Of a stretch of DNA of 64,000 nt, positions 17,523 to 41,870 are shown in pieces. Positions within the stretch are counted from its first letter, which is position 1, and each line of letters starts with the position of its first letter. The stretch lies in IMG/VR virus record IMGVR_UViG_3300005617_000581. One strand, 5' to 3'. The translations under genes and the position numbers were made by a program. The notes under the pieces were generated by a model, which worked only from the letters and a program-made list of their open reading frames with translations, was not told where the DNA came from and searched no databases. The stretch is from a virus.

Positions 17523-17657
17523 GGACTCGGCGGGGACCGAGGTAGGGGACTCGTGTAGATGTTGGTAGATACGTTGTGCGCGGGTTCGCGGGTTGAGAAA
17601 TCGAGGTTGGTGCGCGCGAGAGCGTAACGGGAGGCCCGCGGGCGTAACCTGAATGTG

Positions 17658-17696
17658 AGTGAGAGGTGGGTTGCGGTTACGGACGGGTTACGGACG
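17658..17696. repeat. Iteron-like direct repeats GGGTTGCGG-[GTTACGGACG]x2-GGGTTGCGG
   Basis: Read directly. The tandem GTTACGGACG units are flanked by two GGGTTGCGG copies. Further CGTAACGG/GTTACGG copies occur at about 17619, 17643, 17797 and 17925. Confidence 0.5.
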
Positions 17697-17744
17697 AGGG
17701 TTGCGGGAGTGAGGGGCGTGATAAATCATGTGAGTGAGCGCGCT

Positions 17745-17935
17745 GAGCTGGTATCAGGTAGTAGTAGATCTAGTATTAGTGAATAAAAAAGTTACGGATA
17801 ACAGATTTAAAGCCCGCAACGAGTATAGTGCGCGCGACTACTGGAGATAGTTGACTACGCTCGATAGGATCACGACGAGCTGGGGAAACGAAAATCACTA
17901 TAGAGCAATGCACGAGTAATGTGTACCCGTAACGG
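17745..17935. promoter_or_regulatory. AT-rich non-coding core (candidate replication origin / early promoter region) downstream of primase gene
   Basis: The approx 450-bp gap 17523-17970 has no credible ORF. GC drops sharply (GTAGTAGTAGATCTAGTATTAGTGAATAAAAAAG). It is adjacent to the iteron-like repeats. Confidence 0.35.
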
Positions 17936-26481: not shown

Positions 26482-26709
26482 GTGGGTTGGTTCAAGTCGT
26501 CGCGCAGCGTCTCCAACGGAAACTGCGTCGAGATCAAGTTTAGGACGTCGTCGCGTTCCAGCGGCGGCGAGTGCGTCGAGGTCGCGGCCTGCGTTCACGA
26601 GGTGCTGGTCCGCGACTCGAAGGACCGCGGGGGTCCCGTCTTGCGGTTTACGCCCGCGGAGTGGAAGGCGTTCGTCGACGGCGCGCGCGACGGTGAGTTC
26701 GACCTGTGA
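26482..26709 (+). CDS. DUF397-family protein (actinobacterial; duplicated CVE motif)
   Basis: WFKSSRSVSNGNCVEIKF and GGECVEVAACVHEVLVRDSKDRGGPVLRFTPAEWKAFV match the DUF397 consensus (KSSxSxxxGxCVEVA...VRDSKDPxGPxLxF...W.AF). Confidence 0.6.
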   Translation: MGWFKSSRSVSNGNCVEIKFRTSSRSSGGECVEVAACVHEVLVRDSKDRGGPVLRFTPAEWKAFVDGARDGEFDL

Positions 26710-26774
26710 TCGATTTGACACGGGTGATAGTGTCGACCACGTCATAGTTTTAGGTAAGAGATCGAGAGGAGATC

Positions 26775-27647
26775 GTGATGTTCATTAGTATTTTGATCTT
26801 ATTGTTGGTCGTGGCCGGACTGGTCGCCATCCTCAAGGGCAGCGTCGGCACGGGACAGGACGAGTTTTCGATCCGCTGGATCGGCGGGGTGCTGCTCGGC
26901 ATCGCGTTCGTCGTGTTCCTGCTCGCGACCATCGTGATCGTTCCGACTAAAAACGTCGGCGTCGTGACGGCGTTCGGCCGTCCGACGGGCACGCTTCACA
27001 ACGGCATTCACGTCGTCTGGCCGTGGGAATCGGTTACCGACTACGACGCGACGATCCAGACGTTGTCGACGTCTGACATGCACGTGCGAATGGTCAACGG
27101 CACCGCTACCGCGAACGTCAACGTGACACTTAACTGGCGCCTGGAAGGTGACATTCAGCAGATTCACGTCGACTGGCGCGAGTTTAGCCGCATCCAGACA
27201 TACGTCATTCAACCTCGACTGCAGGACGCGCTGAACAAGGAGTTCATCGACTTCGACCCACTCGTCGCGCTGAAGCAGACTGGCGGTAAGCCGATCTCGA
27301 TGGTGACCATGGAGCAGCGCGTCGCCGAGCGTCTGCAGCACAGCCTGCCCGCCGGTATCTTCGTCGATCACCTGCAGCTGCCGCTGGTCGTCTACCCCGC
27401 GGTCGTCCAGGACGCGCTGAACGCCTACCAGAAGGAACTGGCTAACACGCAGGTCGCGCTGCAGCAGAAGATCACGGCGCAGGCTCAGAAGGACGCGCTG
27501 GATATCTTGTCGCAGGTCCGGATGTCGCCGGAGGCGTTCCTGCAGCAGTGCCTGATCATGACCGAACGCCTGGCGCAGCAGGGTAAGATTATCTCGCAGA
27601 CCTGGTCGTGTGTGTCTGGTTCGGCCGGTACTGTAGCGATTAAGTAG
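26775..27647 (+). CDS. SPFH/band-7 (prohibitin/HflK-like) membrane protein
   Basis: N-terminal TM helix, then a TKNVGVVTAFGRP...HVRMVNGTATANVNVTLNWRL SPFH core and a coiled-coil tail. Lower GC than surrounding genes. Confidence 0.55.
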   Translation: MMFISILILLLVVAGLVAILKGSVGTGQDEFSIRWIGGVLLGIAFVVFLLATIVIVPTKNVGVVTAFGRPTGTLHNGIHVVWPWESVTDYDATIQTLSTSDMHVRMVNGTATANVNVTLNWRLEGDIQQIHVDWREFSRIQTYVIQPRLQDALNKEFIDFDPLVALKQTGGKPISMVTMEQRVAERLQHSLPAGIFVDHLQLPLVVYPAVVQDALNAYQKELANTQVALQQKITAQAQKDALDILSQVRMSPEAFLQQCLIMTERLAQQGKIISQTWSCVSGSAGTVAIK

Positions 27648-27873: not shown

Positions 27874-29355
27874 GTGCAGCCCAAGACGCGCGCGCAGCTG
27901 TTCGCCGAGCTCGCGGATCCCCCGCAGCTGAAGTGGCGGAGCGATCCGCGCGCGTGGGTGGTTGACCGCGCGCGCGTCGAGGTCTGGTCCCGGCAGCGCG
28001 AGATCCTCGAGGCGGTGCGTGACCACGAGAAGGTCGCGATCCCGTCCTGCCACTCCGCGGGTAAGAGCTTTACGATGGGCCTCCTGACGTGCTGGTGGAT
28101 CGACTGCCACCCCGTCGGCGAGGCCCGCGTCGTCTCGACGGCGCCGACGTCGAAGCAGGTCGACGCCGTCCTGTGGAACGAGATCAACCAGCACCACGCG
28201 CGGATCGGCCTCGGCGGGCGCACGAACAAGAACGAGTGGTACTTCGGTAGGTTCCTCGCGGGCCTGGGTCGCAAGCCACCCGACCACGTACAGGCGGCGT
28301 TTCAGGGTCTCCACGCCCTGTACCTGCTGGTCATCTTCGACGAGGCCTACGGCATTCCGAAGCACCTGTGGGACGAGGGCTCGTCGCTCGCGTCGAACCG
28401 CAACGCGCGGATGGTCGCCGTCGGCAACCCCGACGGACCCGGGGAGTTCGCCGAGATCTGCAAGCCGGGTAGCGGCTGGTACGTCATGCCGATCTCGTAC
28501 CGGGACACGCCGAACTTTACCGGCGAGGACGTCTCCGACCGGCTCAAGGACATGCTCATCGCGCCGACGTGGGTCGAGGACCGGCGTCGCAAGTGGGGCG
28601 AGAACTCGGCCCTGTTCCAGTCGAAGTGCGAGGGACGATTCCCAGCCGAGGGTTCGCCGTGGGACGTCATTCCACACGCCTGGGCCGCCGCGTGCCGCTA
28701 CCTCGACCTGCCGGTCGAGGGCGAACGCGAGGCTGGGATCGACATCGGCGCGGGAAACGACCGTACGGTGATAACGATCCGCCAGGGATCGGTGGTTCTC
28801 GACGTTAGGTGGTTCGTCAGCCCCGACCCGGTGCGGACCGTCGGCGACCTGGCGCTTCACATCCGTGACTGGAAGGTAAAGCGCGCGAAGGTCGACTCGA
28901 TCGGCGTCGGCTGGGGCGTCTACGGCGCGCTCAGCGAGGCCGTTCCGGACGTCGAGATCATTCCGATCAACGTCTCGATGCAGCCGTCGTCGGCCGACGC
29001 GCAGGAGAAGTACCTCAACAAGCGCGCCGAGATGTGGTGGGACGTCGGCCGCGAGCTGATCCGCGCGCGTCAGCTCGACCTGTCGCGGCTGCCCGAGGAC
29101 GTCCAGGACGACGTTATTCACGAGCTGTCGTGCCCGCGCTACGAGATCCTCGACTCGCGGGGTAAGATCAAGATCGAGCCGAAGGAGCGGATCATCGAGC
29201 GCCTCGGCGTCTCGCCGGACCTCGCGGAGTCGCTGCTGCTCGCGTTCGTCCCCGCCAACTGGACGGCCGAGCTGCAGGCGTCGGGTATGCTGGCGATGCC
29301 GTCGCTGCTGGAGGGCCTGCGGCCGTCGGACCTGACGGGCCGACGTAGCTGGTAG
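27874..29355 (+). CDS. Terminase large subunit
   Basis: Walker A is IPSCHSAGKSF. The N-terminal ATPase and C-terminal nuclease-like domain (VGNPDGPGEF...DIGAGNDRTVITI) fit TerL. GTG start lies 9 nt after a TAGTAT -10-like element. Confidence 0.8.
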   Translation: MQPKTRAQLFAELADPPQLKWRSDPRAWVVDRARVEVWSRQREILEAVRDHEKVAIPSCHSAGKSFTMGLLTCWWIDCHPVGEARVVSTAPTSKQVDAVLWNEINQHHARIGLGGRTNKNEWYFGRFLAGLGRKPPDHVQAAFQGLHALYLLVIFDEAYGIPKHLWDEGSSLASNRNARMVAVGNPDGPGEFAEICKPGSGWYVMPISYRDTPNFTGEDVSDRLKDMLIAPTWVEDRRRKWGENSALFQSKCEGRFPAEGSPWDVIPHAWAAACRYLDLPVEGEREAGIDIGAGNDRTVITIRQGSVVLDVRWFVSPDPVRTVGDLALHIRDWKVKRAKVDSIGVGWGVYGALSEAVPDVEIIPINVSMQPSSADAQEKYLNKRAEMWWDVGRELIRARQLDLSRLPEDVQDDVIHELSCPRYEILDSRGKIKIEPKERIIERLGVSPDLAESLLLAFVPANWTAELQASGMLAMPSLLEGLRPSDLTGRRSW

Positions 29356-29368
29356 CCGATCATCATAA

Positions 29369-29432
29369 ATAATTAGCCGAACGTCCGCGGTAATTATTCA
29401 CGACACAGTGCTGTGGTGTGATATAATATAGA
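29369..29432 (+). promoter_or_regulatory. Candidate promoter with extended -10 (TGaTATAAT) and operator-like inverted repeats
   Basis: TGATATAAT lies at 29419-29427. Inverted repeat AATAATTA...TAATTATT lies at 29369-29399 and palindrome CACAGTGCTGTG at about 29403-29414. It sits 45 nt upstream of the 29472 gene. Confidence 0.45.
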
Positions 29433-29471
29433 TAGGCGGGCGAACAGCTCGCCGACCGAGAGGAGAATGAG

Positions 29472-29792
29472 ATGAAGGTCGGAGACGTCCTAACCTGGGA
29501 TTACCAGAGCGACGTATTCCAAGGTCAGTACCAATTGGTCGAAGACCTGGGCCGAGGCACGTGGCGCGCCGAGCACCTAGAGCCGAACGACGAGCTGATC
29601 GAATCTGCTCGCGCATACTACCTGGAGTCCGAGCATCCCTACCTGGACTGGATCGATCCGTTCGGTCCGGAGCGGCGACGCGCTACCCGCCAAGAGTCCT
29701 TCGATGCAGAGATCCTGGATCGGATTGAGCGCGCGGGCCAGACATTCGAGGTCCAATTCGTTTCGGCTGAGCGTTACGCCGCAGCTTTTTAA
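29472..29792 (+). CDS. Hypothetical protein (start-associated-sequence gene)
   Basis: 106 aa, preceded by CCGAGAGGAGAATGAG-ATG. Confidence 0.5.
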   Translation: MKVGDVLTWDYQSDVFQGQYQLVEDLGRGTWRAEHLEPNDELIESARAYYLESEHPYLDWIDPFGPERRRATRQESFDAEILDRIERAGQTFEVQFVSAERYAAAF

Positions 29793-29880
29793 GATTGACC
29801 TAAGAGCGAAACGCCGGGAGGCGTCCGACGGTAGGGCCGTCGCTGAGGATGCTCTCAGAACACAAGAGAAGGAGAACGAG

Positions 29881-30195
29881 ATGTACCAGGGAACGCGCTA
29901 CTACATCCAGCGCCCGACCGGCTACATGAAGGAAGGCGAACCCGAGTGGGTCGACATGGAGTTCGAGCCTGGCAAGATCTGGCGCTCCGGCCGGTTCACC
30001 AGCGCCGCGGACCAGGTCAACCAGATGCGCGACGCGGGCGACCAGCGTCCCCTCCGGATCGTGCACCGCACCTTCCGCGAGGACGTCTGCGGCACCTACG
30101 ACCCGGGCCAGCTGGTCCAGCTCTGGAACGCCGACGCGGACCTCGAGATCAACGATGAATCGTTGAAGTTCGAGGCGCCCGAGGACGAGATTTAA
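29881..30195 (+). CDS. Hypothetical protein (start-associated-sequence gene)
   Basis: In-frame ATG 29881 preceded by AGAGAAGGAGAACGAG. Confidence 0.5.
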   Translation: MYQGTRYYIQRPTGYMKEGEPEWVDMEFEPGKIWRSGRFTSAADQVNQMRDAGDQRPLRIVHRTFREDVCGTYDPGQLVQLWNADADLEINDESLKFEAPEDEI

Positions 30196-30277
30196 AGAGA
30201 TCGAAACCTGATCGCCGGGAGGCAGAGCAGGTCCACCCGTTAGGCGGGTGCCGATGAGATCGAGAGGGAGAAACGAG

Positions 30278-30718
30278 ATGGAACGGTGCAAGATCGATGA
30301 TCTGGTCGTGCTCAACGAGCTGTACGCCACACCGGCGACGCGGGGCGTCGTCTACCGCGTGGTCGAGGTCCGCAAGGTCAACGTCGTCGGCGAGCCCCTC
30401 GGCGGTGGACGTCGACTGGCGGCCAAGCCCTACCAATTCGACCCAGCGCCCGAGGACGCGGCGAAGGTCGCGGTTGGGATTCCCTACGTGCCGCCGCTCT
30501 GGTCCGGCGAGGTCGTGACGATTGCAGGTCCGGGCTGGAAGCAGCCGAGCGACGTGCTTTGGGTCGTCATCAAGGACAACGCGGACCGTAAGGTCCGGGT
30601 CGCCCGCCTCGGCGGCGACGACGGTCGCTACTGGACGGTTCCGCGGGGCATGTTGACGGTCGTCGACAAGAAGCTGCTCCTCGAGGCGGTACTCACCATG
30701 GAAACTTCATCGAAGTAG
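30278..30718 (+). CDS. Hypothetical protein (start-associated-sequence gene)
   Basis: ATG 30278 preceded by CGAGAGGGAGAAACGAG. 146 aa. Confidence 0.5.
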   Translation: MERCKIDDLVVLNELYATPATRGVVYRVVEVRKVNVVGEPLGGGRRLAAKPYQFDPAPEDAAKVAVGIPYVPPLWSGEVVTIAGPGWKQPSDVLWVVIKDNADRKVRVARLGGDDGRYWTVPRGMLTVVDKKLLLEAVLTMETSSK

Positions 30719-30761
30719 ATCATACGAATCCGTAATTCGTGTGATACAATTTAAGAAGGTA

Positions 30762-30842
30762 GGGACCGAAGCTCACGGTGAGCGCAAGCAGCTGCGGCAA
30801 CTGGCAGCTAAGCAGGTTCGGGTTCGACTCCCGACGGTTCCA
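30762..30842 (+). tRNA. tRNA-like element (acceptor stem plus canonical T-arm; anticodon arm non-canonical)
   Basis: 5' GGGACCG pairs with 3' CGGTTCC (7 bp, one G-U). The T-arm is TCGGG-TTCGACT-CCCGA, and D-stem GCTC/GAGC is present. The central hairpin AGCTGC-GGCAACTG-GCAGCT has an 8-nt loop, so the anticodon is not assignable. The element lies in a 400-bp ORF-free region. Confidence 0.4.
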
Positions 30843-31115
30843 CGACCAGCTGCCCAGAAGGGGTGCGATGGGAATCCGGTTTTTAGGCCGGTAGCAACAG
30901 CGGCAGCCAAGAGAGCCCCTTCACAAAGCTCTGCCCGCCGTGTTGGCCCGAGCGGTATGGGGTTGGTTGGGGCAATCGGGCCTCCTAAAAAGTCCGCGTT
31001 GAGGTAACTCCGCGGCACATCTCCAAATCCTGTAAGCGGGTTCGCCGCGCGTTTGGCGCGCGCAGGTTCACGGCCTACGAACTCACGCCTCAATCAACCC
31101 AAAAGGAGGTTCCGC

Positions 31116-31844
31116 ATGGAACACAGGACAGAAGCCGCAAAACTCCGCTCGGAGTGGGCGCACAACGCGTCGGAAGTTATGATCGGCGTGGTGCGGGCGA
31201 TCACCAAGCGCTCAAAGTTGATCACGGGCCTCGCGCTCGGTGCGTCGACCCCACACCAGATCGTCTACCTGCTCGCCCTGTGCGTCCCGCACATGCACCT
31301 GAGTACTTCAGTTGACACCGTTCAACTGGTCCAGAACTACCTGGAAGCCCTGGGGATGATCATCATAGCCCTGGCGGTTCCGATCTGCACCGACATCACG
31401 ATCTACAGCTGCGTCGACACTCTCGGCGCGATGGCTGCGACCAAGACGTCAAAGATTCGTGCGTTCATCTTTCTTCTTATTCCACTCGGCGCGAGTGGTT
31501 TTGTAAACTTCCTCGCGCCGGCGCCGATGATCCTCAAGGGGCTCGCGGCGTTCCTGGTAGTACTCGTTATGATCTCCCAGGGACTTAAGTTCGTCGACAC
31601 GGACTGGGATAAGCTCGAGGAATTTGAGGCACAGAACACGATCGTCGAGGATGCGCCGTCGCGACCGGGACGCCGACCGGTTACGGCCCGTGAGCGTCGG
31701 GCGCGTGAGAGGGATCTCTACGCCGCGATGACCAAGACCGAGCAGTACAAGTGGCGCCTGAAGTGGGACGCCGACGAGCAAAAGCGACTGGCAAAGCTGC
31801 AGACCCAGCTCCCAGCGGTGCCCGAGACGGCTACCGTCGGATGA
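31116..31844 (+). CDS. Integral membrane protein (DUF2637-like) with basic/coiled C-terminal tail
   Basis: In-frame ATG 31116 after AAAAGGAGG. Four hydrophobic helices, then a KR-rich coiled tail. Confidence 0.5.
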   Translation: MEHRTEAAKLRSEWAHNASEVMIGVVRAITKRSKLITGLALGASTPHQIVYLLALCVPHMHLSTSVDTVQLVQNYLEALGMIIIALAVPICTDITIYSCVDTLGAMAATKTSKIRAFIFLLIPLGASGFVNFLAPAPMILKGLAAFLVVLVMISQGLKFVDTDWDKLEEFEAQNTIVEDAPSRPGRRPVTARERRARERDLYAAMTKTEQYKWRLKWDADEQKRLAKLQTQLPAVPETATVG

Positions 31845-31932
31845 GGTACACGAGGACCGCGAAATCTTCGCGGTCCTCGGCTACTTTGGCCGACAAAGTG
31901 ATATTATGAACAGGAAACGAGAGGAGAACGAG

Positions 31933-32982
31933 ATGAAGCTCAATAAGACACGCCGCTCGACGGCGACCCTGCTCGGGGTCGCGTTCGGGGACGCGATGGG
32001 ACGCAACACGGAGTTCGTCTACTCCGTCAAGGAGATCGTGCGCCGCAACCTGGTCGTGTACGACCTGCCGCGCCCGGCCCTGGTCACCGACGATACCGAC
32101 ATGACGCGCTACGTCTGTCGCGCGCTGTTGGCTGTCGACGACGTCGCTAACCTCGAACACGCGTTCGTCGAGCAGTTCATCGACTGGTACGACCAGATGG
32201 ACTCGGGCCGCAAGCCCGGCTCGTCGTGCATCCGCGCGGTGCGCAGCCTGATCGCGGACTCGAAGCACGACTGGCTGAGCAACACGGACCCGTTCGCCAA
32301 GGGATGCGGCGCCAACATGCGCGTCGCGCCGGTGGCGCTCGACACGCGCCTGGTGCCCGACTTCGAGGCCGTCGCGAACGTCGCGCAGCTCCAGTCGGCG
32401 ATCACGCACGCGCACCCGACCGCCCTGGCGGCCGCCGAACTGACGGCGTACGCGATCTGGCTGCTGCGCTGGGAGAACTTCGCGCTCGACGCGCGGCTCA
32501 TCGAGGCGCTGCTCGAACGGTGCGACTCGCAGCGCGGCGTCTACCGCGAGGACGTGCTCGGCGACCTGGCTAAGTATTGGTCCGACCGCAAGGCGATGGC
32601 TGGCTACGGTCGGCGCTGGAAGCCGGTCAACGCTAAGCGCGCGATGCAGCTCGGCTGGGACGAGGTGCTCGGCTCGATCCTCGACGTGTACGACGCGTAT
32701 ACGCTCGAGGACGTCGGCGACGACGTCTGTTCCTACACGGGAGGTGGCTGGATCGCCGAGGAGGCGCTAGCCGGTGCGCTGCTGGCGGCACTGTGGCACC
32801 CCGAAAATCCGGTCCGCGCACTGATGCGCGCCGCGACGACGTCGGGTGACTCGGATTCGCTGGCCAGCATCGCAGGCGCGCTTCACGGCGCGTGCTACGG
32901 GTACGACGCGTGGCCTCACGACTGGTACGCCCGCATCGAATTCGGCGACGAGCTCGCCGAATACGGCGAGCGCTGGGACTAG
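31933..32982 (+). CDS. ADP-ribosylglycohydrolase family protein (ARH/DraG-like)
   Basis: GVAFGDAMG, TEF and VTDDTDMT are the ARH-family Mg-binding signature. Preceded by ACGAGAGGAGAACGAG-ATG. Confidence 0.6.
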   Translation: MKLNKTRRSTATLLGVAFGDAMGRNTEFVYSVKEIVRRNLVVYDLPRPALVTDDTDMTRYVCRALLAVDDVANLEHAFVEQFIDWYDQMDSGRKPGSSCIRAVRSLIADSKHDWLSNTDPFAKGCGANMRVAPVALDTRLVPDFEAVANVAQLQSAITHAHPTALAAAELTAYAIWLLRWENFALDARLIEALLERCDSQRGVYREDVLGDLAKYWSDRKAMAGYGRRWKPVNAKRAMQLGWDEVLGSILDVYDAYTLEDVGDDVCSYTGGGWIAEEALAGALLAALWHPENPVRALMRAATTSGDSDSLASIAGALHGACYGYDAWPHDWYARIEFGDELAEYGERWD

Positions 32983-32986
32983 AAGG

Positions 32987-33148
32987 GTGGACGTCGCGGA
33001 ACTGCTGGACCGAATCGGCCGCTGCGAAGCGTGCGGCCGGTTCGTCGTCGAGGACGAACTAATCGAACTGCTAACCCTGTTGGTCTGTGAAGACTGCCGC
33101 GATGAACTTAAGAGAGAAGGAGAACGAGATGACCAAGATTCACGATGA
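32987..33148 (+). CDS. Possible small zinc-ribbon protein
   Basis: A GTG-initiated 53-aa ORF with CEACG...CEDC. It overlaps the start of the next gene by 20 nt. Confidence 0.25.
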   Translation: MDVAELLDRIGRCEACGRFVVEDELIELLTLLVCEDCRDELKREGERDDQDSR

Positions 33149-33578
33149 ACTACCGGGCGTGCTGACGTGCCCCGAGGGTCACTTTCACGGCTACGTGATC
33201 GTTCACCTAACGTGGGAATCGACGGAGCCGTTCGCGCTCGTCGTCGAGGTTACGCCGCAGGATCGGTGGATGCTCGGTTCGACGGTCCACGGCGTCGCGG
33301 AGCGCGAAACGTTCGCGCAGTGTGCCGCACACGGCGACGTATCGTGCGAGGTCTACGGCACGCCAGGCGCCGTCACGTTCAAGATAAGGGCCACCGAACA
33401 CGAGGTCATGACCATCGCGGTCCCACACGAACTTCCTGACGGCCGCAAGCGCGTCGTGCTGACGGCGTTCGAGCGCGCGTCCGCGATCGGCTTTATCACG
33501 CGGACCTACGACGAGGTTCCGGCCGGCCGCGAGGACTGCGACATCGACCACCTCGCAGCGCGCCTGCTATATTCATAA
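33129..33578 (+). CDS. Hypothetical protein (start-associated-sequence gene)
   Basis: ATG 33129 preceded by AGAGAGAAGGAGAACGAG. 149 aa. Confidence 0.5.
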   Translation: MTKIHDELPGVLTCPEGHFHGYVIVHLTWESTEPFALVVEVTPQDRWMLGSTVHGVAERETFAQCAAHGDVSCEVYGTPGAVTFKIRATEHEVMTIAVPHELPDGRKRVVLTAFERASAIGFITRTYDEVPAGREDCDIDHLAARLLYS

Positions 33579-33607
33579 CTAGCTTCGCAGGCGCTCGGCA
33601 CCCACCT

Positions 33608-33646
33608 AAGGCGCCCTACCTCTACCGAGGTAGGGCGCCTTTTTCG
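33608..33646 (+). terminator. Intrinsic (rho-independent) terminator
   Basis: A perfect 14-15-bp stem AAGGCGCCCTACCTC / GAGGTAGGGCGCCTT with loop TACC, followed by TTTTT. Confidence 0.8.
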
Positions 33647-33669
33647 TCTCCCGGTGTTAGTATCTCCTT

Positions 33670-34065
33670 GTGCTGACGAATCTTTCAACGTGGCTGCCGC
33701 TGCTGCTCGTGATCGCTGCGACGCCGCGCGCCACGCGGATCGTCACCCGGGATAAGCTGCCGCTGATCGCGATACCTCGTGACGCGTTCGTCCGCCGCTG
33801 GGGAGCCTACGAGGACGAACCGAACGACGACGCCGAGACGCGCCGCGAGCGCCGTAAGATCGCGATCGGCGGTAAGGCGACCAACGTCGTCATGTCGTCG
33901 CTAGCGTACCTGTGGGAGTGTGACTGGTGCGTCTCGATCTGGCTCGGCGGCCTGCTGACGTTCCTGACCTGGATGTGGCCCGAAACTATGATCTACGTGC
34001 TCGTTCCGCTGGTCGCGTCGTACGCCGCGGGCTGGAACGCGGACGCCGAAACCAAGGGTAAGTAG
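33670..34065 (+). CDS. Membrane protein (DUF1360-like), leaderless GTG start
   Basis: Two or three TM helices and a CDWC motif. GTG 33670 lies 6 nt after the TAGTAT element at 33658-33663. Confidence 0.45.
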   Translation: MLTNLSTWLPLLLVIAATPRATRIVTRDKLPLIAIPRDAFVRRWGAYEDEPNDDAETRRERRKIAIGGKATNVVMSSLAYLWECDWCVSIWLGGLLTFLTWMWPETMIYVLVPLVASYAAGWNADAETKGK

Positions 34066-34079
34066 GAGGGATCAGCGAG

Positions 34080-35669
34080 GTGGCCGATCGTCCCTCGGCG
34101 CGTACCCGCGTCGCAGCTTCAAGCCACGACGACCGTACGCCGCTCGTCGGCGCGTCGCAGATGCTGCTCGGTCTACCGGGTGAGGACTACGCGCAGCGCT
34201 ACAAGTCGTGGCAGGACGAGCTGTGGGACTACACGCGCAACGTCGGCGAGTACGGCGGCGTCATGGACTGGTTCGCGTCGGGGATCTCGCGCATGCACCT
34301 GGTCGCAGCTGTCCAGCGTCCGGGTGAGCAGCGCGAACCCGAGATCCTGGCCGACGGACCCGCGGCCGACCAGATGCACCAGCTCGCCGCGTACGCCGCG
34401 GGCGGCGAAACACAGTACCTCTATAAGTGGGGTCGACACCTCGGGGTGCCCGGCGTTGGTTTCTTCATCGCGTACGACAGGGACGGCATGCGTCAGTTCG
34501 ACGTCAAGTCCGCCAAGCAGATCAGGCGCTCCGAGAAGCCCTTCTACGACGCGCAGAACCGAATCATTAAGACGCCCAAGGGCGAGGTAATCCGCGGCTT
34601 CGACGTCGAGGTCGCCGAGGGGCGCTGGGAACAGCTTCCCTACGAGTCGCTGGTCGGCCGCATCTACCGGCCGGACGACGAGCTGGACTACGAGGTATCC
34701 TCGTGGTCGCGCGGCGCGCTGACGACGCTACGCGAGATCGACCTGCTGAACCGACACGTCGTCGCTACGCTGCTGTCCCGGCTCGTCTTCAACGGCATCC
34801 TGTTCATACCGAGCGAGGTCACGTTCCCGGTCAACCCGCAGTTCAAGGACGCGCCGGATCCGTTCATCGCGGAGCTGGCGGCCGTCGCGGCGCGCGGCAT
34901 CAAGGACCCGGGCTCGCCGCTGAGCGCGCTGCCGCTGCCGCTGCGCGTCAAGTCGGACATGATCGAGCACTTCAAGCACCTGGTCATCGCGACCGGGGTC
35001 GACCCTAAGATCAACGAACTGCGCGCCGCGGCGATCCAGCGCCTGGCGCAGCAGCTGCCCGCGCCGCCGAGCGCGATGGAGGGCACGCAGGACTCGAACC
35101 ACTGGAACGCGTGGAAGGACTCCGAGGACAACATCAAGCTGTACTTCGGACCGACCATGGAAATCCTATGTGGCGGACACACGGACATCTACCTGCGGCC
35201 GATGTTGAAGGCGGCCGGTCACCCCCTGGAGACCTCCGACGGCGGCCGGATCATCTGCTGGTACGACGCATCGGACCTGATCAACAAGCCGGACAACTCG
35301 GAGAACGCGCGCGACGCGCGCGAAAAGATCGTCATCTCGGACGGGTCGTACCTGCGTCAGCTCGGCATGGACGACGACGACATGGCGACGGACGAGGAAC
35401 GCCGCAAGCAGATCCTGACGACGCTCGCGATCCAGGGGCTTCCTATTCCCGACTCGTACTACCTGCTGTACCCCGACGATAAGCCGGAACCGGGCGTCGA
35501 CCAGCTCGGCAACCCGATCCCGCAACCCGGACTGGCGGCCGGTGGACCGTCGCCTAACGCTGGCCCGTCGGGCGGATCCGCCAACGGTCGACCGGCCGCC
35601 GACCAGTCAACCGTCAAGACGCGCGCGCCGAAGGCTGTACCTACCCCGAGCGGCCCACGGGGAGGTTAG
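34080..35669 (+). CDS. Portal protein
   Basis: 529 aa, first large gene of the head-morphogenesis block immediately upstream of the MuF-like gene. It has an acidic/Gly-Pro C-terminus. Confidence 0.6.
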   Translation: MADRPSARTRVAASSHDDRTPLVGASQMLLGLPGEDYAQRYKSWQDELWDYTRNVGEYGGVMDWFASGISRMHLVAAVQRPGEQREPEILADGPAADQMHQLAAYAAGGETQYLYKWGRHLGVPGVGFFIAYDRDGMRQFDVKSAKQIRRSEKPFYDAQNRIIKTPKGEVIRGFDVEVAEGRWEQLPYESLVGRIYRPDDELDYEVSSWSRGALTTLREIDLLNRHVVATLLSRLVFNGILFIPSEVTFPVNPQFKDAPDPFIAELAAVAARGIKDPGSPLSALPLPLRVKSDMIEHFKHLVIATGVDPKINELRAAAIQRLAQQLPAPPSAMEGTQDSNHWNAWKDSEDNIKLYFGPTMEILCGGHTDIYLRPMLKAAGHPLETSDGGRIICWYDASDLINKPDNSENARDAREKIVISDGSYLRQLGMDDDDMATDEERRKQILTTLAIQGLPIPDSYYLLYPDDKPEPGVDQLGNPIPQPGLAAGGPSPNAGPSGGSANGRPAADQSTVKTRAPKAVPTPSGPRGG

Positions 35670-35670
35670 T

Positions 35671-37812
35671 ATGACGAGGTTTGCCGGTTGGTCTGAGCGT
35701 GAGCTACTCCGGCGTGAGCGGGTGTTTGACGGCCTACTCAACAAGGCGACGCGATCCGTCGGGCGCGTCGTTGCGGCCAACATGCGCGCCGCGCTGACGG
35801 CCGCGGCGGCCCCGGACGACGAGTACGTTCCGAGCGGCTGGCAGCCCGCGGGCGGGGAAGTCGCGACCGCGTGGGCGTACCACGTCGACCACGAGCTGAT
35901 GCCGTACCTCGAGGACGCGTTCCTCGACTCGGCGGCCGACGTCCACGGCGCCGCCGAGCTCGCGGCCGGGGTATCGATCACGAAGGTCACCGACGAACTC
36001 GCGAGCGACTACCTCGCGGCGGCGCGCAACCGACTAGTCGGCGTCGGCGACCTGGTCTGGAACGCGATCCGCGTCGAGCTGTCCAGCGGCTACGCCGCCG
36101 GCGACGGCGTCGAACAGCTCGCGACGCGCGTACGTAAGATCGTCGACGTCACCGAGCCGCGTGCCCGGACGATCGCGCGGACCGAGCTGATCTCGGCCGT
36201 CAACGCGTCGAACCTGCTGCAGGTTAAGATCGCCGGGTTTACCGACGCCGAGTGCTCTAAGTGCTGGCTGGCGACCGACGACGAACGCACGCGGATCGCG
36301 CATCACCAGGCCGACGGGCAGTGCGTCGGGCTGTGGCAGCCGTTCATCGTCGGCGGCGAAGGCCTGCAGTTTCCGGGGGATCCGTCCGGGCGGCCCGACA
36401 ACGTCATCAACTGCCGGTGCAGCCTCGGGTATGAGTTCCACGACGACGATCCGCTAACCGCCGCGGAAGATTTCGGGCTCGACTGGGATCCGACCGAGCA
36501 TCCGCGCAACCCGGCGGACGGACGGTTCGTCGACGTCGTCGGCGCCGTCGAAAGGTTCATCGACGCCGACGAAGCTACCAGGATGCACGTCGCGATGACG
36601 AAGGGTAAGCCCTGGACGAAGGCACAGGACAAGGCCCTGGAGGGCTACGTCACGCGTACGTTCACGCCCGTTAATGGCGTGCTGCGCGGCGAGCAGGAAT
36701 CCGACGAACGAACCGACCAGGAAATCGCGAACATTCACGCCGCGATGAGGCCGACCACGCAGCCGATCCGCGTATCGCGACGCGTGCAGTCGACGGCGTT
36801 CGGAATTCCACCGGGCGTCGGGGCCGACCGCGACTACAGCGGCGACCTGCAGCACCTGGTCGGGCGAACGCTGCGCGAGCCGGGATTTCTGTCGACGTCG
36901 ACCAACGAACGATGGAGTAAGCCGACGCTGGTGGCGGGGCGCATGATCGTTATCGAGCTGGACGTACCGGCGGGCACGCCCGCGGCGTTTCTCGGCGCGC
37001 CCGGCGGACCCGGCATGTCACACGAGAGCGAGCTGCTGCTCGACCACGGCACCAAGTTCGTCGTCACTAAGGTGTTCAAGGAACCCAACGGCCCGACGCG
37101 CGTCTACGGCCGCGTCGTTACCGACACGCTCGTCGCCAAGTACGACCCGAAGGAGCTCCGCGACGACCACGGCCGCTGGACGGATACGCCCGGGTCGGGT
37201 GCCGCCTACAAGATGTTCGACTACCTGGCGGACCAGCGCGACCGGAACGACTTCGAGCGCGAGATGGACGACAACGGCCCCGCGCCGACGACGGAGCAGT
37301 TCAGCGAGCTGGAGCTCTACGCCGACAGCGGCTACGACGACATCAACACGGCGCTCCGCCGAAAGCGAACGCACGGCGAAGATCCGAGTGACGACGTACT
37401 CAACAGCATCACGCTCCTCAGGGACGCCATGCGCCCGACGCCGCGCGACGTTCAGGTACGTCGCCACGTCGAACCGGACGCGTTCGGCATTAAGACTAAC
37501 CACCAGGTCCTACTGAGCAAGCACCACGACTGGTCGAGCGAACTTAAGCACCTCGTGGGAAGGACGCTCGAGGAACCAGGATTCATGTCTACGTCGGTAG
37601 ATCCCAACTGGTCGAGCCACGCGACATACGGAATCATGATCGAGGTCAACGTGCCCGAGGGTACGCCGGCGTACTACATGGGAGGCATGGACGGTCCAGG
37701 CCTCGAAGGTGAGTTTGAGCTTCTCCTTAACGCGGGAACTCGGTTTAAGGTTTTGGACGTGGTACACGAGTCGGGACGGATCACGACGGTGCGCGCGGAG
37801 GTGGTTTCGTGA
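35671..37812 (+). CDS. MuF-like head-morphogenesis protein fused to two tandem C3/VIP2-type ADP-ribosyltransferase domains
   Basis: MuF core has RIAHHQADGQ...NCRCS. ART1 has YVTRTFTPVNGVLRG, VSRRVQ (Arg), FLSTST (STS) and SHESELLL (ExE). ART2 has YDDINTALR, QVRRHV, FMSTSV and EGEFELLL. Confidence 0.75.
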   Translation: MTRFAGWSERELLRRERVFDGLLNKATRSVGRVVAANMRAALTAAAAPDDEYVPSGWQPAGGEVATAWAYHVDHELMPYLEDAFLDSAADVHGAAELAAGVSITKVTDELASDYLAAARNRLVGVGDLVWNAIRVELSSGYAAGDGVEQLATRVRKIVDVTEPRARTIARTELISAVNASNLLQVKIAGFTDAECSKCWLATDDERTRIAHHQADGQCVGLWQPFIVGGEGLQFPGDPSGRPDNVINCRCSLGYEFHDDDPLTAAEDFGLDWDPTEHPRNPADGRFVDVVGAVERFIDADEATRMHVAMTKGKPWTKAQDKALEGYVTRTFTPVNGVLRGEQESDERTDQEIANIHAAMRPTTQPIRVSRRVQSTAFGIPPGVGADRDYSGDLQHLVGRTLREPGFLSTSTNERWSKPTLVAGRMIVIELDVPAGTPAAFLGAPGGPGMSHESELLLDHGTKFVVTKVFKEPNGPTRVYGRVVTDTLVAKYDPKELRDDHGRWTDTPGSGAAYKMFDYLADQRDRNDFEREMDDNGPAPTTEQFSELELYADSGYDDINTALRRKRTHGEDPSDDVLNSITLLRDAMRPTPRDVQVRRHVEPDAFGIKTNHQVLLSKHHDWSSELKHLVGRTLEEPGFMSTSVDPNWSSHATYGIMIEVNVPEGTPAYYMGGMDGPGLEGEFELLLNAGTRFKVLDVVHESGRITTVRAEVVS

Positions 37813-40800
37813 GCGCGCTCAGCGACGGTAAGAACGCGCTGTTCGTCCTCGTCGACGAGGACGAACCGCTGGCGGCCGCGCTGTCGCACAAGCAGGTCAA
37901 GGCGATGGATATCGCTGCTCAGGCGCTTAAGAACCTACCCGGATCCGGCGACTGGGATCCGAAGCTGCACCCGCGGAACCCGAACACCGGGGAGTTCATC
38001 GACAAGGGCACGTCGATCGTTAAGATCTCGAAGGACGACATCGGGCACATCATTGCGCTGGATCCGTCGGCGTTCAACGACTGGTTCATCAAGATAGGTC
38101 CACATACTAAGAAGAGCTGGGACGCGCAGGCGCCGGGTACGCAGAAGATTCTTAAAAACCTCGCGGCTAAGTACGCGGCCGCGGGACAGGGCGCCGACGC
38201 GTTCGACCTCATTCAAGTTTTCGAACACGTGGCAACGCACGGTAAGCTCACTGGCATCAAGTGGGATGCTCCACTCAAGCTGGACGAGCTCGGTCAGAGT
38301 GATTTCTTCGACTGGTTTCACGACATCTTCGTTTCGGGGGACAGCCACCATGATAAGCAGGCCTGGAACGAACTGTCAACGAAGCAAAAGGGTGAGGTCA
38401 TCGCGGAGGTCGCGAAGCTTCTAAGCTCACCTCATACAACCGACGCATACGTTAAGAACCTCGCGAAGAAGATCAACCAGCTCGAGGGTACCCCCGTCCT
38501 GAAGGTCGATACGCCGCCGTCGGCGTTCGTGCCGCAGCCGGCGCAGCCGATCGGCGTCGGAACGGTGCCCGTGGTCGGCGTTCCGTTGAAGATTAACACG
38601 CCGTTCGTCTACAAGACCGCGTTTATGAACAACACGATCATCGCTGAGAAACTGCAGCACGATCCGCCGCTGCGGATAATCTTTAAGAACAGTAAGTTTC
38701 ACATCCAATCGCAGGACGCCAGCGGCACGTGGGCAACGCCGAGCGTGGGGCTGACGCAAAAGCTCGGGATCGCCGGTCCGTACGGTAAGCCGCTCGGTAA
38801 GGGCGAGCTCTATAAGGCGTTTAAGAACGACGTCGGCTGGACGTCGCCCCTCAATACGCAGGCACACTTTAAGACTCCGAGCTCGGCTCCCCCACTGTCC
38901 GCCGAGACTCAGGCCGTGATCGAAGAGATCAAGATGATGTCTGGGCCGGAGTTCGTCGGATTCATGGACGACAACTATGACGAGATACTCGCTATGTGGA
39001 ATACCGCGCCCGACGAGGAGAAGAAGGTACTCAAGGACAAGGCAACCGAAGTCCTAACTCACCCGAAGGCGAATGGGTTCGTCTCGCCGAGCGACAAATC
39101 ATACCTGAAGCCGTACCAGCAGCTCCAGGAGATCGAAAAGCAGGTCAGCAACATGCTGAAGTCGACGACACCTCCCAAGGGGGCTGTCTATGGCACGTCG
39201 ACATTCGCGGTGCCGGGTAACCTGAACACGTACAGTAACGTCAACATCAACCAGTTCTACGACAGCATCACACAGGCCGACTGGGACTCGTTTGACAAGC
39301 CGACCAAGACCTACCTGCAGAAGATCGCGGATCAGTTCGAGCACGACGGTAACGACGAACCAGGCGCCGCGCTAATCGCCTTAAAGAACAACGAGGGACC
39401 CGGTTCGCCTTGGGCGAGCATGCCGACGCTGTCGCAGATGTCGCCGGAGATCTCGAAGATGGATTCGCTGCAGTTTAAGGAGTGGCTGGACAACCAGACC
39501 GCGCAGACGCTGAGCGAACTCAACCACAAGGAGCAGGTTCACCTGTTCGACGTCGCGGCGAACCACACCCTGACGAACTACCTACACGACGTCATCAGCT
39601 CGACGGCGTCGACGTTGACGGATCCACAGTTGTCGCCGCAGGCGAACCCGAACGTGCCGAGTACGCCAAACGTGCCGACGACGCCCGGCGTTCCGGGCAA
39701 CCCGATCCTGCAGTCGATCCACGAAAACGTGCACGTCAACGTCAAGCCGATCGGTCAGATCGGCACGCCGATATCCGACGACCAGGTCGGTGCGTACGCG
39801 TCGATAACGCCGCTCGCGGCGCAGCACATGCAGGCCGAGATGCTTAAGCAGTCCGGTAAGACCTGGACGTCCGCGGAGATCAACTCCGTCGCGAAGTACA
39901 CGACGTCCGAGGGCTACCAGTCGATGAACGCGGTGCTGCGCAACGACCAGGTGCGCATGAAGAAGTTCTCGCAGCAGGCTCTTAAGGCCGCGGGTATGAA
40001 CGCGCGTGATCTTCAAAACGCCATGACGCCGACGACGACGAGCCTGCAGCTGTTCCGAGGAACGGGCGCGCACGCGTTCGGCTTCGACTCGGACCACGCG
40101 CCGAGCCTCGACGCGCTGAAGGCGCTCGAGGGGAAGCTGATCACCGACCGCGGGTTCACGTCGACGTCGATCGTCGACAAGACCGGCGTCGGCTGGGACT
40201 ACACCAAGAAGCCGATCCGCATCGAGATCAAGGTGCCGAAGGGCGCGCCCGCGCTGTACGTCTCGTCCGCGACCCCGGGCTACAAGACCGAGGAGGAACT
40301 GATCCTCGGCGCGGGTACGACGTTCCGGATCGACGAGGTTCGCGCCGCTACCGCGGCCGAGAAGGCGAAGCACGGCGGCGCGCTGGAGCACGTCGTCTCG
40401 GTAACCGTCGTCCCGCGCGCGAATCACCCCGGGCCGAAGAAGTTTCCGTCGTCCGTCGCGTCGCCGCTGTCGGCCGTCGACGCCGCGCAGGTGCCGCAGT
40501 CGCTTAAGCCGAACCCCAGTACGACGGCGACGCCGGGCGCGAAGCCGAAGGTTGGTGGAACGCCGTTCAAGTTCAACACGTCGACCATCTACAAGGTCGC
40601 GTACACGCCCGGCCAGACCGTCGCCGAACGACCGGGGCCCGACGGCGACATTAAGATGGTGTGGAACGTCAAGGGAAAGACGGGTAAGTTCCAGCTTTGG
40701 AAGAACGATCCGAACCTCAACAAGTGGCTGCTCGTCAAGGAGTACGGCAAGGGCGACGCGTACACGGCGTTTAAGAACGACTCGGGCTGGTTCGAGCCCG

Positions 40801-41870
40801 GATCCGTTGGGCAGCCGGACCTGGCGCAGCCGCTCGGCCTAACCGTGTCGCCGAAGAAGATCAGTAAGTACGACGCGAACGCCATCAAGGCCGAGCACGG
40901 CGACACGTACCTGTTTGGGTACGACGAAAAGGAGAGCCTCTACCAGCACTTTAAGAAGAACACCAGCCTCGGCTTCATAATGCTGAATACGCAGCCGCCG
41001 ACCGTCTTTAAGGCCCTCGCCCTGGCCGTCGCCAAGTGGAACAAGGATCACCCGGCGGACCACATGAACATGCTGCAGGGCATTAAGATCATCGACGAGT
41101 TCGGCCACATACACGCGCCCGCCGGAACGCCTAAGCAGACGTTGTGGGAAACCAAGGTCGTCGACTGGCTGACGACCGCGTCCGGTAAGAAGAACGCCGC
41201 CGGGTTCATCAACTGGGCCGAGGACTACGTCAACGCGCCGACGTCGACGACATCGTCCGGTGCGGTCGTACATCTTAAGCTGCCGATCGAGATCGGTACG
41301 CCGGACGCGAGCGAAACGAACTTCCCCGCCATCAAGTCGGCCGAGGCGATGGCCATGCATAAGAAGGCGATGACCAAGCACGGCGTGTGGAACAAGATGC
41401 AGACCGACGTGATCTACGACTACACCGGATCGGGATCCGGATACATCAACGGCGCGCTTCGCAGCGGCAACACGAACGGCAGCGGCTACCAATCCGCCAT
41501 CAAGATGCAGTCCGCGATGTACCCGGCCGAAAAGAGCTTCCAGGTGTTCCGCAACACCGAGAGCGTCGGCGCCGCGTTCAACGGATACACGCTGGAAGAC
41601 TGGCAAAAGATGGTTGGACAGACGCTTCTTGAGCCGGGATTTTCGTCGACCGCGGTCGGTAAGTCGGTGTTCGGGGGAAGAAAGTTCCACCTCGAGATCG
41701 AGGTTCCGAAGGGCACGCCGGGGGCGTACGTCAAGTCCGCGTCGGCCAACGCATACGAAAACGAGTACATAATCGCGGCGGGTACGAAGTTTCGCGTCCT
41801 GAGCGTGGCTAAGAAACCCGGCATCGGCAGCACCTACGGCTTTAACATACGACTGAGGGTGGTGTCTTAG
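37809..41870 (+). CDS. Large polyvalent virion protein (1353 aa) with two ADP-ribosyltransferase domains
   Basis: ART3 has YTTSEGYQSMNAVLR, LFRGTG, FTSTSI and KTEEELILG. ART4 has YTGSGSGYINGALR, VFRNTE, FSSTAV and YENEYIIA. N-terminal HPRNPNTGEFID motif. Lower GC. Confidence 0.7.
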   Translation: MSALSDGKNALFVLVDEDEPLAAALSHKQVKAMDIAAQALKNLPGSGDWDPKLHPRNPNTGEFIDKGTSIVKISKDDIGHIIALDPSAFNDWFIKIGPHTKKSWDAQAPGTQKILKNLAAKYAAAGQGADAFDLIQVFEHVATHGKLTGIKWDAPLKLDELGQSDFFDWFHDIFVSGDSHHDKQAWNELSTKQKGEVIAEVAKLLSSPHTTDAYVKNLAKKINQLEGTPVLKVDTPPSAFVPQPAQPIGVGTVPVVGVPLKINTPFVYKTAFMNNTIIAEKLQHDPPLRIIFKNSKFHIQSQDASGTWATPSVGLTQKLGIAGPYGKPLGKGELYKAFKNDVGWTSPLNTQAHFKTPSSAPPLSAETQAVIEEIKMMSGPEFVGFMDDNYDEILAMWNTAPDEEKKVLKDKATEVLTHPKANGFVSPSDKSYLKPYQQLQEIEKQVSNMLKSTTPPKGAVYGTSTFAVPGNLNTYSNVNINQFYDSITQADWDSFDKPTKTYLQKIADQFEHDGNDEPGAALIALKNNEGPGSPWASMPTLSQMSPEISKMDSLQFKEWLDNQTAQTLSELNHKEQVHLFDVAANHTLTNYLHDVISSTASTLTDPQLSPQANPNVPSTPNVPTTPGVPGNPILQSIHENVHVNVKPIGQIGTPISDDQVGAYASITPLAAQHMQAEMLKQSGKTWTSAEINSVAKYTTSEGYQSMNAVLRNDQVRMKKFSQQALKAAGMNARDLQNAMTPTTTSLQLFRGTGAHAFGFDSDHAPSLDALKALEGKLITDRGFTSTSIVDKTGVGWDYTKKPIRIEIKVPKGAPALYVSSATPGYKTEEELILGAGTTFRIDEVRAATAAEKAKHGGALEHVVSVTVVPRANHPGPKKFPSSVASPLSAVDAAQVPQSLKPNPSTTATPGAKPKVGGTPFKFNTSTIYKVAYTPGQTVAERPGPDGDIKMVWNVKGKTGKFQLWKNDPNLNKWLLVKEYGKGDAYTAFKNDSGWFEPGSVGQPDLAQPLGLTVSPKKISKYDANAIKAEHGDTYLFGYDEKESLYQHFKKNTSLGFIMLNTQPPTVFKALALAVAKWNKDHPADHMNMLQGIKIIDEFGHIHAPAGTPKQTLWETKVVDWLTTASGKKNAAGFINWAEDYVNAPTSTTSSGAVVHLKLPIEIGTPDASETNFPAIKSAEAMAMHKKAMTKHGVWNKMQTDVIYDYTGSGSGYINGALRSGNTNGSGYQSAIKMQSAMYPAEKSFQVFRNTESVGAAFNGYTLEDWQKMVGQTLLEPGFSSTAVGKSVFGGRKFHLEIEVPKGTPGAYVKSASANAYENEYIIAAGTKFRVLSVAKKPGIGSTYGFNIRLRVVS

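Follow-up and report, generated by a model that had tools for sequence, protein, structure and literature searches.

The viral record IMGVR_UViG_3300005617_000581 poses a question of genome organization: what occupies the space between its large terminase and portal genes, and how is this space filled? The stretch analyzed here is a 64-kb segment from the genome of an uncultured tailed soil phage of high GC content (about 60-70%; hereafter the window, or W), in which TerL (27874-29355, phrog_2) and the portal gene (34080-35669, phrog_776) are separated by 4724 bp of small genes, promoter-like sites and noncoding elements. A preliminary description of this DNA had regarded the block as a single 4.7-kb moron or anti-defence island inserted between two genes that are normally neighbors. 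The premise holds true for the nearest cultured phages, JackieB and Amigo, where the portal begins 13 and 56 nt past TerL and no gap exists. The insertion itself does not, as a TerL-portal gap is found in every relative of the clade. We regard the block as the local version of a clade-wide slot with swappable cargo, which separates TerL from a conserved DUF1360-portal-MuF/ADP-ribosyltransferase (ART) head operon in uncultured phages of filamentous actinomycetes. Its architecture and its nature as a hotspot seem to us very probable; the explanation as a whole, as developed below, we favor with somewhat less assurance.

Relatives were taken from IMG/VR and other assemblies and have TerL identities of 49-88%; loci of these related phage contigs are designated by L numbers. 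In all 12 relatives displaying both genes, the TerL-portal distance is 1.4-6.0 kb, while in L004 TerL is followed by more than 10 kb that include 26 tRNA genes. The content of the slot is variable and includes the ADP-ribosylglycohydrolase gene ARH, an FAD monooxygenase, 1-26 tRNAs and small open reading frames (ORFs). Thus, the accessory and variable character attributed to the block is borne out, since relatives hold different genes at the same place and the case of close relatives all carrying identical content did not arise. The FAD-dependent monooxygenase (PF01494) lies in the slot of L166 (4860-6020) and L167 (4934-6094). DUF1360 is located directly 5' of the portal in all 18 loci where a portal is visible and is therefore considered core rather than cargo; its six substitutions relative to variants are all synonymous. 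The slot as such goes back to the ancestor of the clade and has been conserved in part.

The features originally listed for the block are all present where they had been placed, with some starts refined (B 29881, C 30278, ARH 31933 rather than 31906, Zn-ribbon GTG 32987, F 33129), but the range also takes in the core gene DUF1360, and two hammerhead elements as well as three additional promoter-like sites had been overlooked. The features are as follows.

29363-29375/29391-29403, + strand: AT-rich inverted repeat with 13-nt arms right after the TerL stop codon, identified by repeat search; it overlaps the -35 region of P1
29400-29427, + strand: P1, predicted sigma-70-like promoter, ACGACA-16-TGATATAAT (TG-n-TATAAT), with the extended -10 at 29419-29427 and a predicted start near 29434
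29472-29792, + strand: gene A, 106 aa, preceded by the ribosome-binding site (RBS) cassette GGAGAATGAGATG; found in W only, absent from L086
29804-29856, + strand: HH1, type II hammerhead element, core GAAA / GUC / CUGAGGA, predicted cleavage at 29825/29826
29881-30195, + strand: gene B, 104 aa, with a hammerhead element on both sides; family in W, L086 (87%), L001, L002 and L003
30199-30262, + strand: HH2, type II hammerhead element with extended stem III, core GAAA / GUC / CCGAUGA, predicted cleavage at 30233/30234
30278-30718, + strand: gene C, 146 aa, found in W and L166 only (43% homolog in the latter), absent from L086
30742-30750, + strand: P2, predicted extended -10 TGATACAAT with the palindrome ACGAAT-N5-ATTCGT in front, kept in L086
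30762-30842, + strand: tRNA-Ala-like element, 7-bp acceptor stem with G3:U70, A73, canonical D and T arms
30843-31115, + strand: untranslated leader between the tRNA-like element and Mem, containing what is left of a second tRNA-like site, of which L086 retains the intact form
31116-31844, + strand: Mem, 242-aa helical membrane protein of no known family; 16 homologs, clade-restricted (W, L086, L001, L166-L169)
31852-31907, + strand: hairpin (11-bp stem, 31852-31878), then P3, predicted extended -10 TGATATTAT (31899-31907); arrangement kept in ARH-less relatives
31933-32982, + strand: ARH (ARH/DraG family), 349 aa, PF03747 E = 1.9e-51; placed between Mem and Zn-ribbon only in the W lineage (L081/L082, about 95% identical) and L086
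32987-33148, + strand: Zn-ribbon peptide, 53 aa (CEAC...CEDC), GTG start, overlapping the start of F; present in most relatives
33129-33578, + strand: F, SsgA-like protein (SALP), 149 aa, N-terminal TCPxGHxHG motif; in W, L086, L001-L003 and L168
33608-33646, + strand: intrinsic terminator, 15-bp stem (10 G-C pairs), 4-nt loop and T-run (33608-33641 by terminator scan)
33655-33672, + strand: P4, predicted -10 TGTTAGTAT, 6 nt from the GTG of DUF1360; 82% conserved in L002 and L003
33670-34065, + strand: DUF1360, 131-aa membrane protein (PF07098)
35668-37812, + strand: MuF head protein fused to two ART domains (PF04233, PF03496)
37809-41870, + strand: 1353-aa protein with two further ART domains (PF03496, PHROGs)

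How the cargo may turn over is suggested by the RBS cassette GGAGAAYGAGATG. This 13-nt string has four exact copies in the 64 kb, against a chance expectation of about 0.2, and all four stand at gene starts of the block (A, B, ARH and F). The starts of these four genes could be fixed because the identical string precedes each of them. In L086, which lacks A and HH1, the junction falls exactly in the cassette, which forms a direct repeat at both ends of the missing 409-nt segment. At the sequence level, this shows the cassette to be the recombination joint in at least one event, the A+HH1 indel; the turnover of other cargo genes may presumably proceed through the same string. In several respects the slot resembles the morons and accessory hotspots of other tailed phages, as variable genes lie amid conserved structural genes, accompanied by host-type promoters, a terminator and presence/absence polymorphism. 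ARH, for example, separates Mem from Zn-ribbon only in W, L081, L082 and L086 and is absent from L001 and L166-L169. Unlike morons, the slot is clade-ancestral and partly conserved, its joints coincide with a shared RBS cassette and it also holds tRNAs and ribozymes, while ARH has no promoter and terminator of its own: the hairpin and P3 pre-exist in ARH-less relatives and no terminator lies between ARH and the Zn-ribbon gene.

The window appears to belong to a lineage far removed from described phages. Megablast of the region against GenBank phages yielded no matches and its TerL has at most 41% identity to the TerL of deposited phages. No portal relatives were found in GTDB genomes, hence there is no evidence for a prophage. 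The DUF397 and SsgA-like domains, together with the closest named relatives of ARH (Micromonosporaceae, Pseudonocardiaceae and Streptomyces), point to a filamentous actinomycete as host.

Among the cargo, ARH matches its Pfam family over the full length (175.9 bits against a cut-off of 26.2, spanning 2-286 of 287), its best solved relatives are PDB 6dre, DraG and ARH1/3, and its metal motifs (T52-D53-D54-T55 and G305-D306-S307-D308-S309) are invariant in 12 homologs and align to DraG and 6dre. Relative to L081/L082, 16 of 20 substitutions fall at third codon positions, and a 75% ortholog sits at the equivalent place in L086. By these measures the gene is intact and under purifying selection. 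It belongs with a large family of chromosomal actinomycete proteins (44-48% identity) and is, to judge from its relatives, host-derived. Within the slot, its insertion between P3 and the Zn-ribbon gene is lineage-specific. Because the hairpin and P3 are conserved 3' of Mem in L001, L168 and L169, all of which lack ARH, the gene was inserted in a pre-existing unit running from P3 through Zn-ribbon and the SsgA-like gene to the terminator; the presence of P3 in these relatives also rules out that ARH imported its own promoter.

The window encodes four ART domains in the MuF protein and the 1353-aa protein, and all four carry the R / STS(A) / ExE residues. ARTs of the R-S-E type bear the signature of arginine-specific enzymes, and DraG/ARH1-type enzymes hydrolyze arginine-linked ADP-ribose. 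ARH lies 2.7 kb 5' of the first ART gene, on the other side of the terminator and in another unit. Across IMG/VR, an ART was found within 10 kb in 23 of 80 ARH-centered loci, often 0.3-1.9 kb upstream, compared to 0 of 72 controls (Fisher p = 7e-8, a value that treats related contigs as independent). The most likely role of ARH would be to erase the arginine-linked ADP-ribose that these four ExE-type ART domains, borne on the phage's own virion, attach to proteins, which could limit or time the effect of the ARTs or protect a cell that is still producing phage. That ARH acts on the phage's own marks seems to us an evenly balanced proposition. The ARH-ART association suggests a role in the phage's own ADP-ribosylation cycle at least as strongly as one in counter-defence.

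The proposal has precedents in known ART/ARH pairs (Tre1-Tri1, PDB 6dre/6drh; DraT-DraG), in which an arginine-type ExE writer and a DraG/ARH-fold eraser are likewise combined in one element, and the best structure match of the window ARH is the 6dre chain. Iyer et al. (2022, PMC9503650) described ARG domains in actinophages, MuF-ART fusions and a coupling of phage ART and ARG, and phage MuF-ART polyvalent head proteins were also reported by Jamet et al. (2017, PMC5576092). As in the polyvalent head proteins of both studies, the ARTs of the window are fused to MuF, which implies their delivery with the DNA. Unlike the Tre1-Tri1 type of pair, the window ARH is neither adjacent to an ART nor predicted to be co-transcribed with one, such adjacency being seen only in other viral clades, and ARH is missing from most clade members that keep the ARTs. 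Several further observations weigh against an action on the phage's own marks. ART genes are universal in the clade, but ARH occurs sporadically and at shifting positions: no copy is found within 10 kb of TerL in L001-L003, L006-L008, L166-L169 and L173, and that of L004/L087 lies 5' of TerL. It is therefore not an obligatory antidote. Chromosomal ARH homologs (Micromonospora) also occur in a housekeeping context without an ART. An ARH of the McProf-type mycobacterial prophage was considered as evidence of pairing as well, but has no adjacent ART and is uninformative. As a separate observation, the virion module at 35668-42859 carries an unusual toxin load, in which the four ART domains are followed by a protein of 329 aa containing a kinase domain of the Zeta-toxin/AAA_33 type (PF06414), and L167 encodes a MuF-NUDIX-ART arrangement.

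The same sporadic, position-shifting distribution would be typical of a counter-defence gene, and counter-defence is the main rival reading. ARH could be an orphan-antitoxin type of protein that strips ADP-ribose set by a host ART defence on phage or host macromolecules, independently of the phage ARTs. Its derivation from a large host family would fit this role, as would the precedent of phage NADAR glycohydrolases, which have a different fold and neutralize DarTG1 (Johannesman et al. 2025, PMC11825919), and the probable action of phage ARG domains upon macromolecular ADP-ribose (Iyer 2022, PMC9503650). A counter-defence role does not predict the enrichment of phage ARTs around ARH on viral contigs, however, and known DNA-directed defence ARTs are established to be reversed by macro and NADAR domains rather than by the DraG/ARH fold (see also PMC11825919). 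As there is also no known host target, we view counter-defence as possible, but doubtful. Another alternative is that ARH and the SsgA-like protein are both host-takeover factors, resetting endogenous ADP-ribosylation and the developmental or cell-division program, for instance by blocking sporulation septation. Both genes do stem from actinomycete housekeeping or developmental families and both lie in the unit from P3 to the terminator, but the SsgA-like gene is found in relatives without ARH and the two are not an obligate pair; this scenario appears unlikely.

The assignment of F to the SsgA-like proteins is based upon its family rather than the window copy, which scores below the Pfam cut-off (PF04686, 18.6 bits, E = 0.0018, gathering 25), a point to be held against the assignment. 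All five members of the F family match PF04686 (best E = 6e-10), the family profile matches PDB 6slc (2e-5) and 3cm1 (2e-4), and the L168 homolog has a precomputed SsgA match. The profile similarity to SALPs such as SsgA and SsgB extends over the whole SsgA domain, including the C-terminal Y/F-x-VP-x-E...D region. In contrast to these proteins, F is phage-encoded and highly diverged, has the additional N-terminal TCPxGHxHG motif and always follows the Zn-ribbon peptide. Given its family membership, F probably disturbs FtsZ or septum placement in the hyphal host. A single-sequence AlphaFold model of F was unusable (pLDDT 38), and no paper on a phage SALP was found in the literature. Homologs of the Zn-ribbon peptide are present in L001, L003, L086, L166, L167 and L169, with CxxC...CxxC conserved in L001, L003 and L086. 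Mem, modeled with 16 sequences, was predicted to be all-helical (pLDDT 61, pTM 0.34), which is too poor for a fold search. Compared to L082 (156-893), Mem is 22% diverged (63 of 243 aa), whereas the variants are otherwise about 95-99% identical and the intergenic DNA flanking Mem has 0-1 differences (at least 99% identical). As the protein has diverged between nearly identical noncoding flanks, Mem probably represents either an allele swap or a diversifying locus.

The ORF-free stretch at 30719-31115 does contain a tRNA-like element, as had been noticed at the outset, but it is a borderline one, since neither ARAGORN at default settings nor the default-filter Rfam gathering scan of the whole window reports it. 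The element starts 12 nt past the P2 -10 and reaches 31.8 bits with Rfam RF00005 in a narrow sensitive search (gathering 29); its minimum free energy (MFE) fold is a cloverleaf (z = -2.1) with the T arm GTTCGANTC. The acceptor, D and T arms are thus those of a tRNA. In place of a 5-bp stem, a 7-nt loop and a readable anticodon, the anticodon arm has a 6-bp stem and the 8-nt loop GGCAACUG, and the region measures 29 nt instead of the expected 17. Its nearest relatives are tRNA-Ala(ggc) of L004 and an odd tRNA of the same locus (12537-12609), and ordinary tRNAs occupy the equivalent position 5' of Mem in L166, L167, L168 and L176. L004 is itself remarkable for 26 tRNA genes 3' of TerL (11690-17836), with three hammerheads ahead of them and a G3:U70 pair and 6-nt anticodon loop in its odd tRNA; L084 has 15 tRNAs (4732-6989) near its ARH. 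Behind the same promoter, L086 carries a split tRNA-like domain (1119-1270) with a 114-nt insert, the acceptor GGGUCGG/CCGAUCC with G3:U70 and a perfect T arm; it scores 16.3 bits with the Rfam tmRNA model (E = 3e-4), and its window equivalent at about 30960-30985 has no T loop. Over the portion of the leader that L082 spans (30962-31115), the two sequences have a single difference in 154 nt. Since the 359-nt ORF-free stretch has no extra stability relative to shuffles (z = +0.16), no claim is made for a large structured RNA. Relaxed ARAGORN thresholds produced overlapping and unconvincing calls, including tmRNA-like ones, which were discarded except for the Rfam-supported call. Other Rfam matches were set aside as the terminator hairpin (Pseudomonas sRNA P11 at 33610-33692) or as noise (mir-718, MEG8 and similar).

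The element shares with phage tRNA arrays its position, which matches the tRNA genes of relatives (1-26), and the canonical acceptor, D and T arms. It departs from them in the non-canonical 8-nt anticodon loop and its rejection by standard finders, and probably does not decode. By this comparison, the most likely identity is that of a tRNA-Ala gene in decay, possibly still acting as a processing handle for RNase P/Z. A bolder reading would be that the G3:U70/A73 elements with 6-nt, 8-nt or much-expanded anticodon arms (W 30762-30842, L004 12537-12609 and L086 1119-1270) are selected non-decoding RNAs, chargeable by AlaRS or recognized by RNase P, in a cassette array whose 13-nt RBS joint doubles as a recombination site and whose genes are freed by hammerheads and tRNA-like handles. 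If true, small cargo genes would be singly released from a common transcript. We regard this as a speculative and rather improbable extension.

Transcription of the block was approached through promoter-like sites. Of five + strand extended -10 sites (TGnTAnnnT type) in the 64 kb, four lie in the block (29419, 30742, 31899 and 33655), which constitutes 7% of the window (binomial about 1e-4 by our own calculation). P1 has 10 of 12 matches in the promoter scan with TG present and is 82% conserved in L086; P1 and P2 are promoters by inference. In L001, L002 and L003 the terminator hairpin is kept in structure, with a different but still complementary sequence, and is followed by TTGTAGTAT, 6 nt and the GTG of DUF1360. 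This arrangement makes a leaderless start of the DUF1360-portal operon probable. Since the terminator and downstream promoter are conserved across the clade, the terminator is a clade-level boundary rather than the end of an island. The block would accordingly be read as three short units, each under a host-type extended -10 promoter: P1 followed by A, HH1, B, HH2 and C; P2 followed by the tRNA-like element, leader, Mem and the hairpin; and P3 followed by ARH, Zn-ribbon, the SsgA-like gene and the strong terminator. Another promoter type, (T/G)TAGTAT, would then restart transcription for the leaderless DUF1360-portal message. On the other side of the balance, neither the promoters nor the leaderless start go beyond agreement with a consensus. 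The motif GGTAGTAT / GTTAGTAT is located 5' of TerL, DUF1360-portal and the major capsid gene (window 27859, 33658 and 45340), with a GTG 6-9 nt further on at the first two, and may represent a second promoter class for structural genes, unlike the TGTGATAYAAT type of the cargo. In relatives, promoters are also positioned on near-perfect palindromes (TCACATTAATGTGA, or ATTATTGTGAC-N4-GTCACAATAAT) overlapping the region upstream of the -10 (L002 at about 11785 and 12156; L003 at about 11640 and 12396), which could serve as operators for a regulator of phage or host origin; P1-P3 of the window each have a different short palindrome at the equivalent place.

These observations return us to the island model, here taken as a single recent insertion that opens with one promoter and closes with one terminator. 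The region is indeed distinct from the structural genes in its predicted transcription signals, the extended -10 promoter at 29419-29427 and its 13-nt inverted repeat were confirmed, and the terminator at 33608-33646 has its stem and T-run. The block also has a GC content of 62.8%, compared to about 67% in the flanks, and the cultured relatives have TerL next to the portal. The island model nonetheless has to accommodate the gap in every clade member, the recurrence of B, Zn-ribbon, the SsgA-like gene and DUF1360 among relatives, four promoter-like sites instead of one, terminator/P4 and hairpin/P3 junctions kept in relatives with other cargo, and a gene-by-gene turnover in which A+HH1, C and ARH vary independently. 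We consider it very unlikely. The block proteins had no matches in PADLOC, whose models describe defence rather than anti-defence systems, and gene A had none in Pfam, PHROG or PADLOC.

Within the first unit, gene B is bracketed by HH1 and HH2. These elements were spotted as two noncoding pieces better conserved than the surrounding proteins, and the hammerhead core was recognized by eye. Gene B itself has only six relatives among 1.84 billion representatives in a deep search. HH2 is 77-89% conserved in L001, L002, L003 and L004, where the neighboring proteins barely align, and homologs of HH1 in L001 and L004 have compensatory changes. With Rfam Hammerhead_II (RF02276), HH1 aligns end to end (29804-29860) with 19.3 bits, which falls short of the gathering score (37) and counts against the assignment; HH2 was not reported with this model and the gathering scan of the whole window was empty. 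The hammerheads were therefore tested independently with a covariance model, R1, built from five long-stem-III copies, with HH2 in the training set and HH1 outside it. HH1 scored 39.1 bits (E = 3e-8) and HH2, as a training member, 94.8 bits. At E <= 5e-4, R1 detected 11 copies across W and L001-L004, six of them outside the training set; every copy lies in the gap and on the + strand. In their alignment, which was fitted to the model and thus favors the structure, 100% of 179 cells are paired; shuffles reach 77% and slid controls no more than 44%. Compensatory double changes occur in 10 of 18 pairs and covariation is 0.544 versus 0.165 (0 of 500 shuffles). The core is invariant in the 11 copies except at positions 4 and 7, with the GUC triplet in every copy. 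The expected core (C3-U4-G5-A6-N7-G8-A9, G12-A13-A14 and the A15.1-U16.1 pair) is found in HH1 with an A-U pair, and is otherwise complete in HH2, which has C in place of U at position 4, a variant seen in 5 of 11 copies. An NUH triplet precedes stem I, three helices covary and the open end is at stem II. The MFE folds of both window copies are three-way junctions (z = -1.3 and -1.8). Thirteen further R1 matches lie in L086 and L087 (5), L166-L169 (5) and L176 and L177 (3); those in L083 are not new, as L083 overlaps L004 on the same contig. The distant L006-L008 gave no R1 matches, and HH2 had no blastn matches in GenBank phages. The order hammerhead-B-hammerhead is kept in W, L001, L002 and L003.

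We are highly confident of the hammerhead fold. By cutting the first transcript on either side of B, HH1 and HH2 would release a 408-nt monocistronic RNA (29826-30233), presumably with 5'-OH and 2',3'-cyclic phosphate ends. Counting against this, the C4 of HH2 may slow its catalysis; the U4C variant is possibly slower in mutational data. Hammerheads around a phage gene are of a known kind, as Perreault et al. (2011, PMC3088659) found clustered hammerheads flanking single phage genes to be active, proposed a role in mRNA processing and noted that the flanked genes are not constant. The two sets share type II, the canonical GAAA / NUH / CUGANGA core, three stems and a ribozyme pair around one small gene in a run of small genes. 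Those described here differ in their high-GC actinomycete phages, their fixed TerL-portal slot, their scores below the Rfam gathering threshold and the conservation of B in four phages; core position 4 is C in about half of the copies, and in some an additional U follows A9. That the elements are inactive relics or chance matches among small genes co-translated from a polycistronic RNA, as the sub-threshold Rfam scores, the C4 variant and the modest fold z might suggest, is most improbable given an invariant core, three stems that covary without a mispair, conservation exceeding that of the adjacent proteins and an exclusive strand and location across copies in 13 contigs. Separately, the window encodes a 160-aa protein with a PNKP-type HAD phosphatase domain (PF25109; 25326-25808) 2 kb 5' of TerL, also present in L169; PNKP-type enzymes heal 2',3'-cyclic phosphate ends such as those left by hammerheads and anticodon nucleases.

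Outside of the slot, the region just 5' of TerL (26482-27647) encodes a DUF397 protein and a membrane protein of the SPFH/Band-7 type, both conserved in L001 and L169, and a 1008-aa PrimPol-D5 primase-helicase (14496-17522) opens the rightward gene set. The 95% variants L081 (4565-5215) and L082 (4849-5499) have an insertion of about 650 nt relative to window 35798-35830, near the portal end and the MuF N-terminus, and L082 has an extra insertion of about 230 nt close to the start of the 1353-aa ART protein.

All of the components described here are of known kinds; the novelty lies in how and where they are combined, in an SsgA-like protein encoded by a phage and in the variant hammerheads. 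The range of natural type II hammerheads, with a U4C core variant among them, is extended to high-GC phages, and a cell-division-type (SsgA-like) protein is added to the phage repertoire. ARH may be a phage ADP-ribose eraser linked to four virion-delivered writers, which, if true, would amount to a reversible, phage-controlled ADP-ribosylation cycle. More generally, the slot provides an example of how an uncultured actinomycete phage lineage arranges and swaps its accessory genes, using a fixed slot, host-type promoters, ribozymes and a repeated RBS string.

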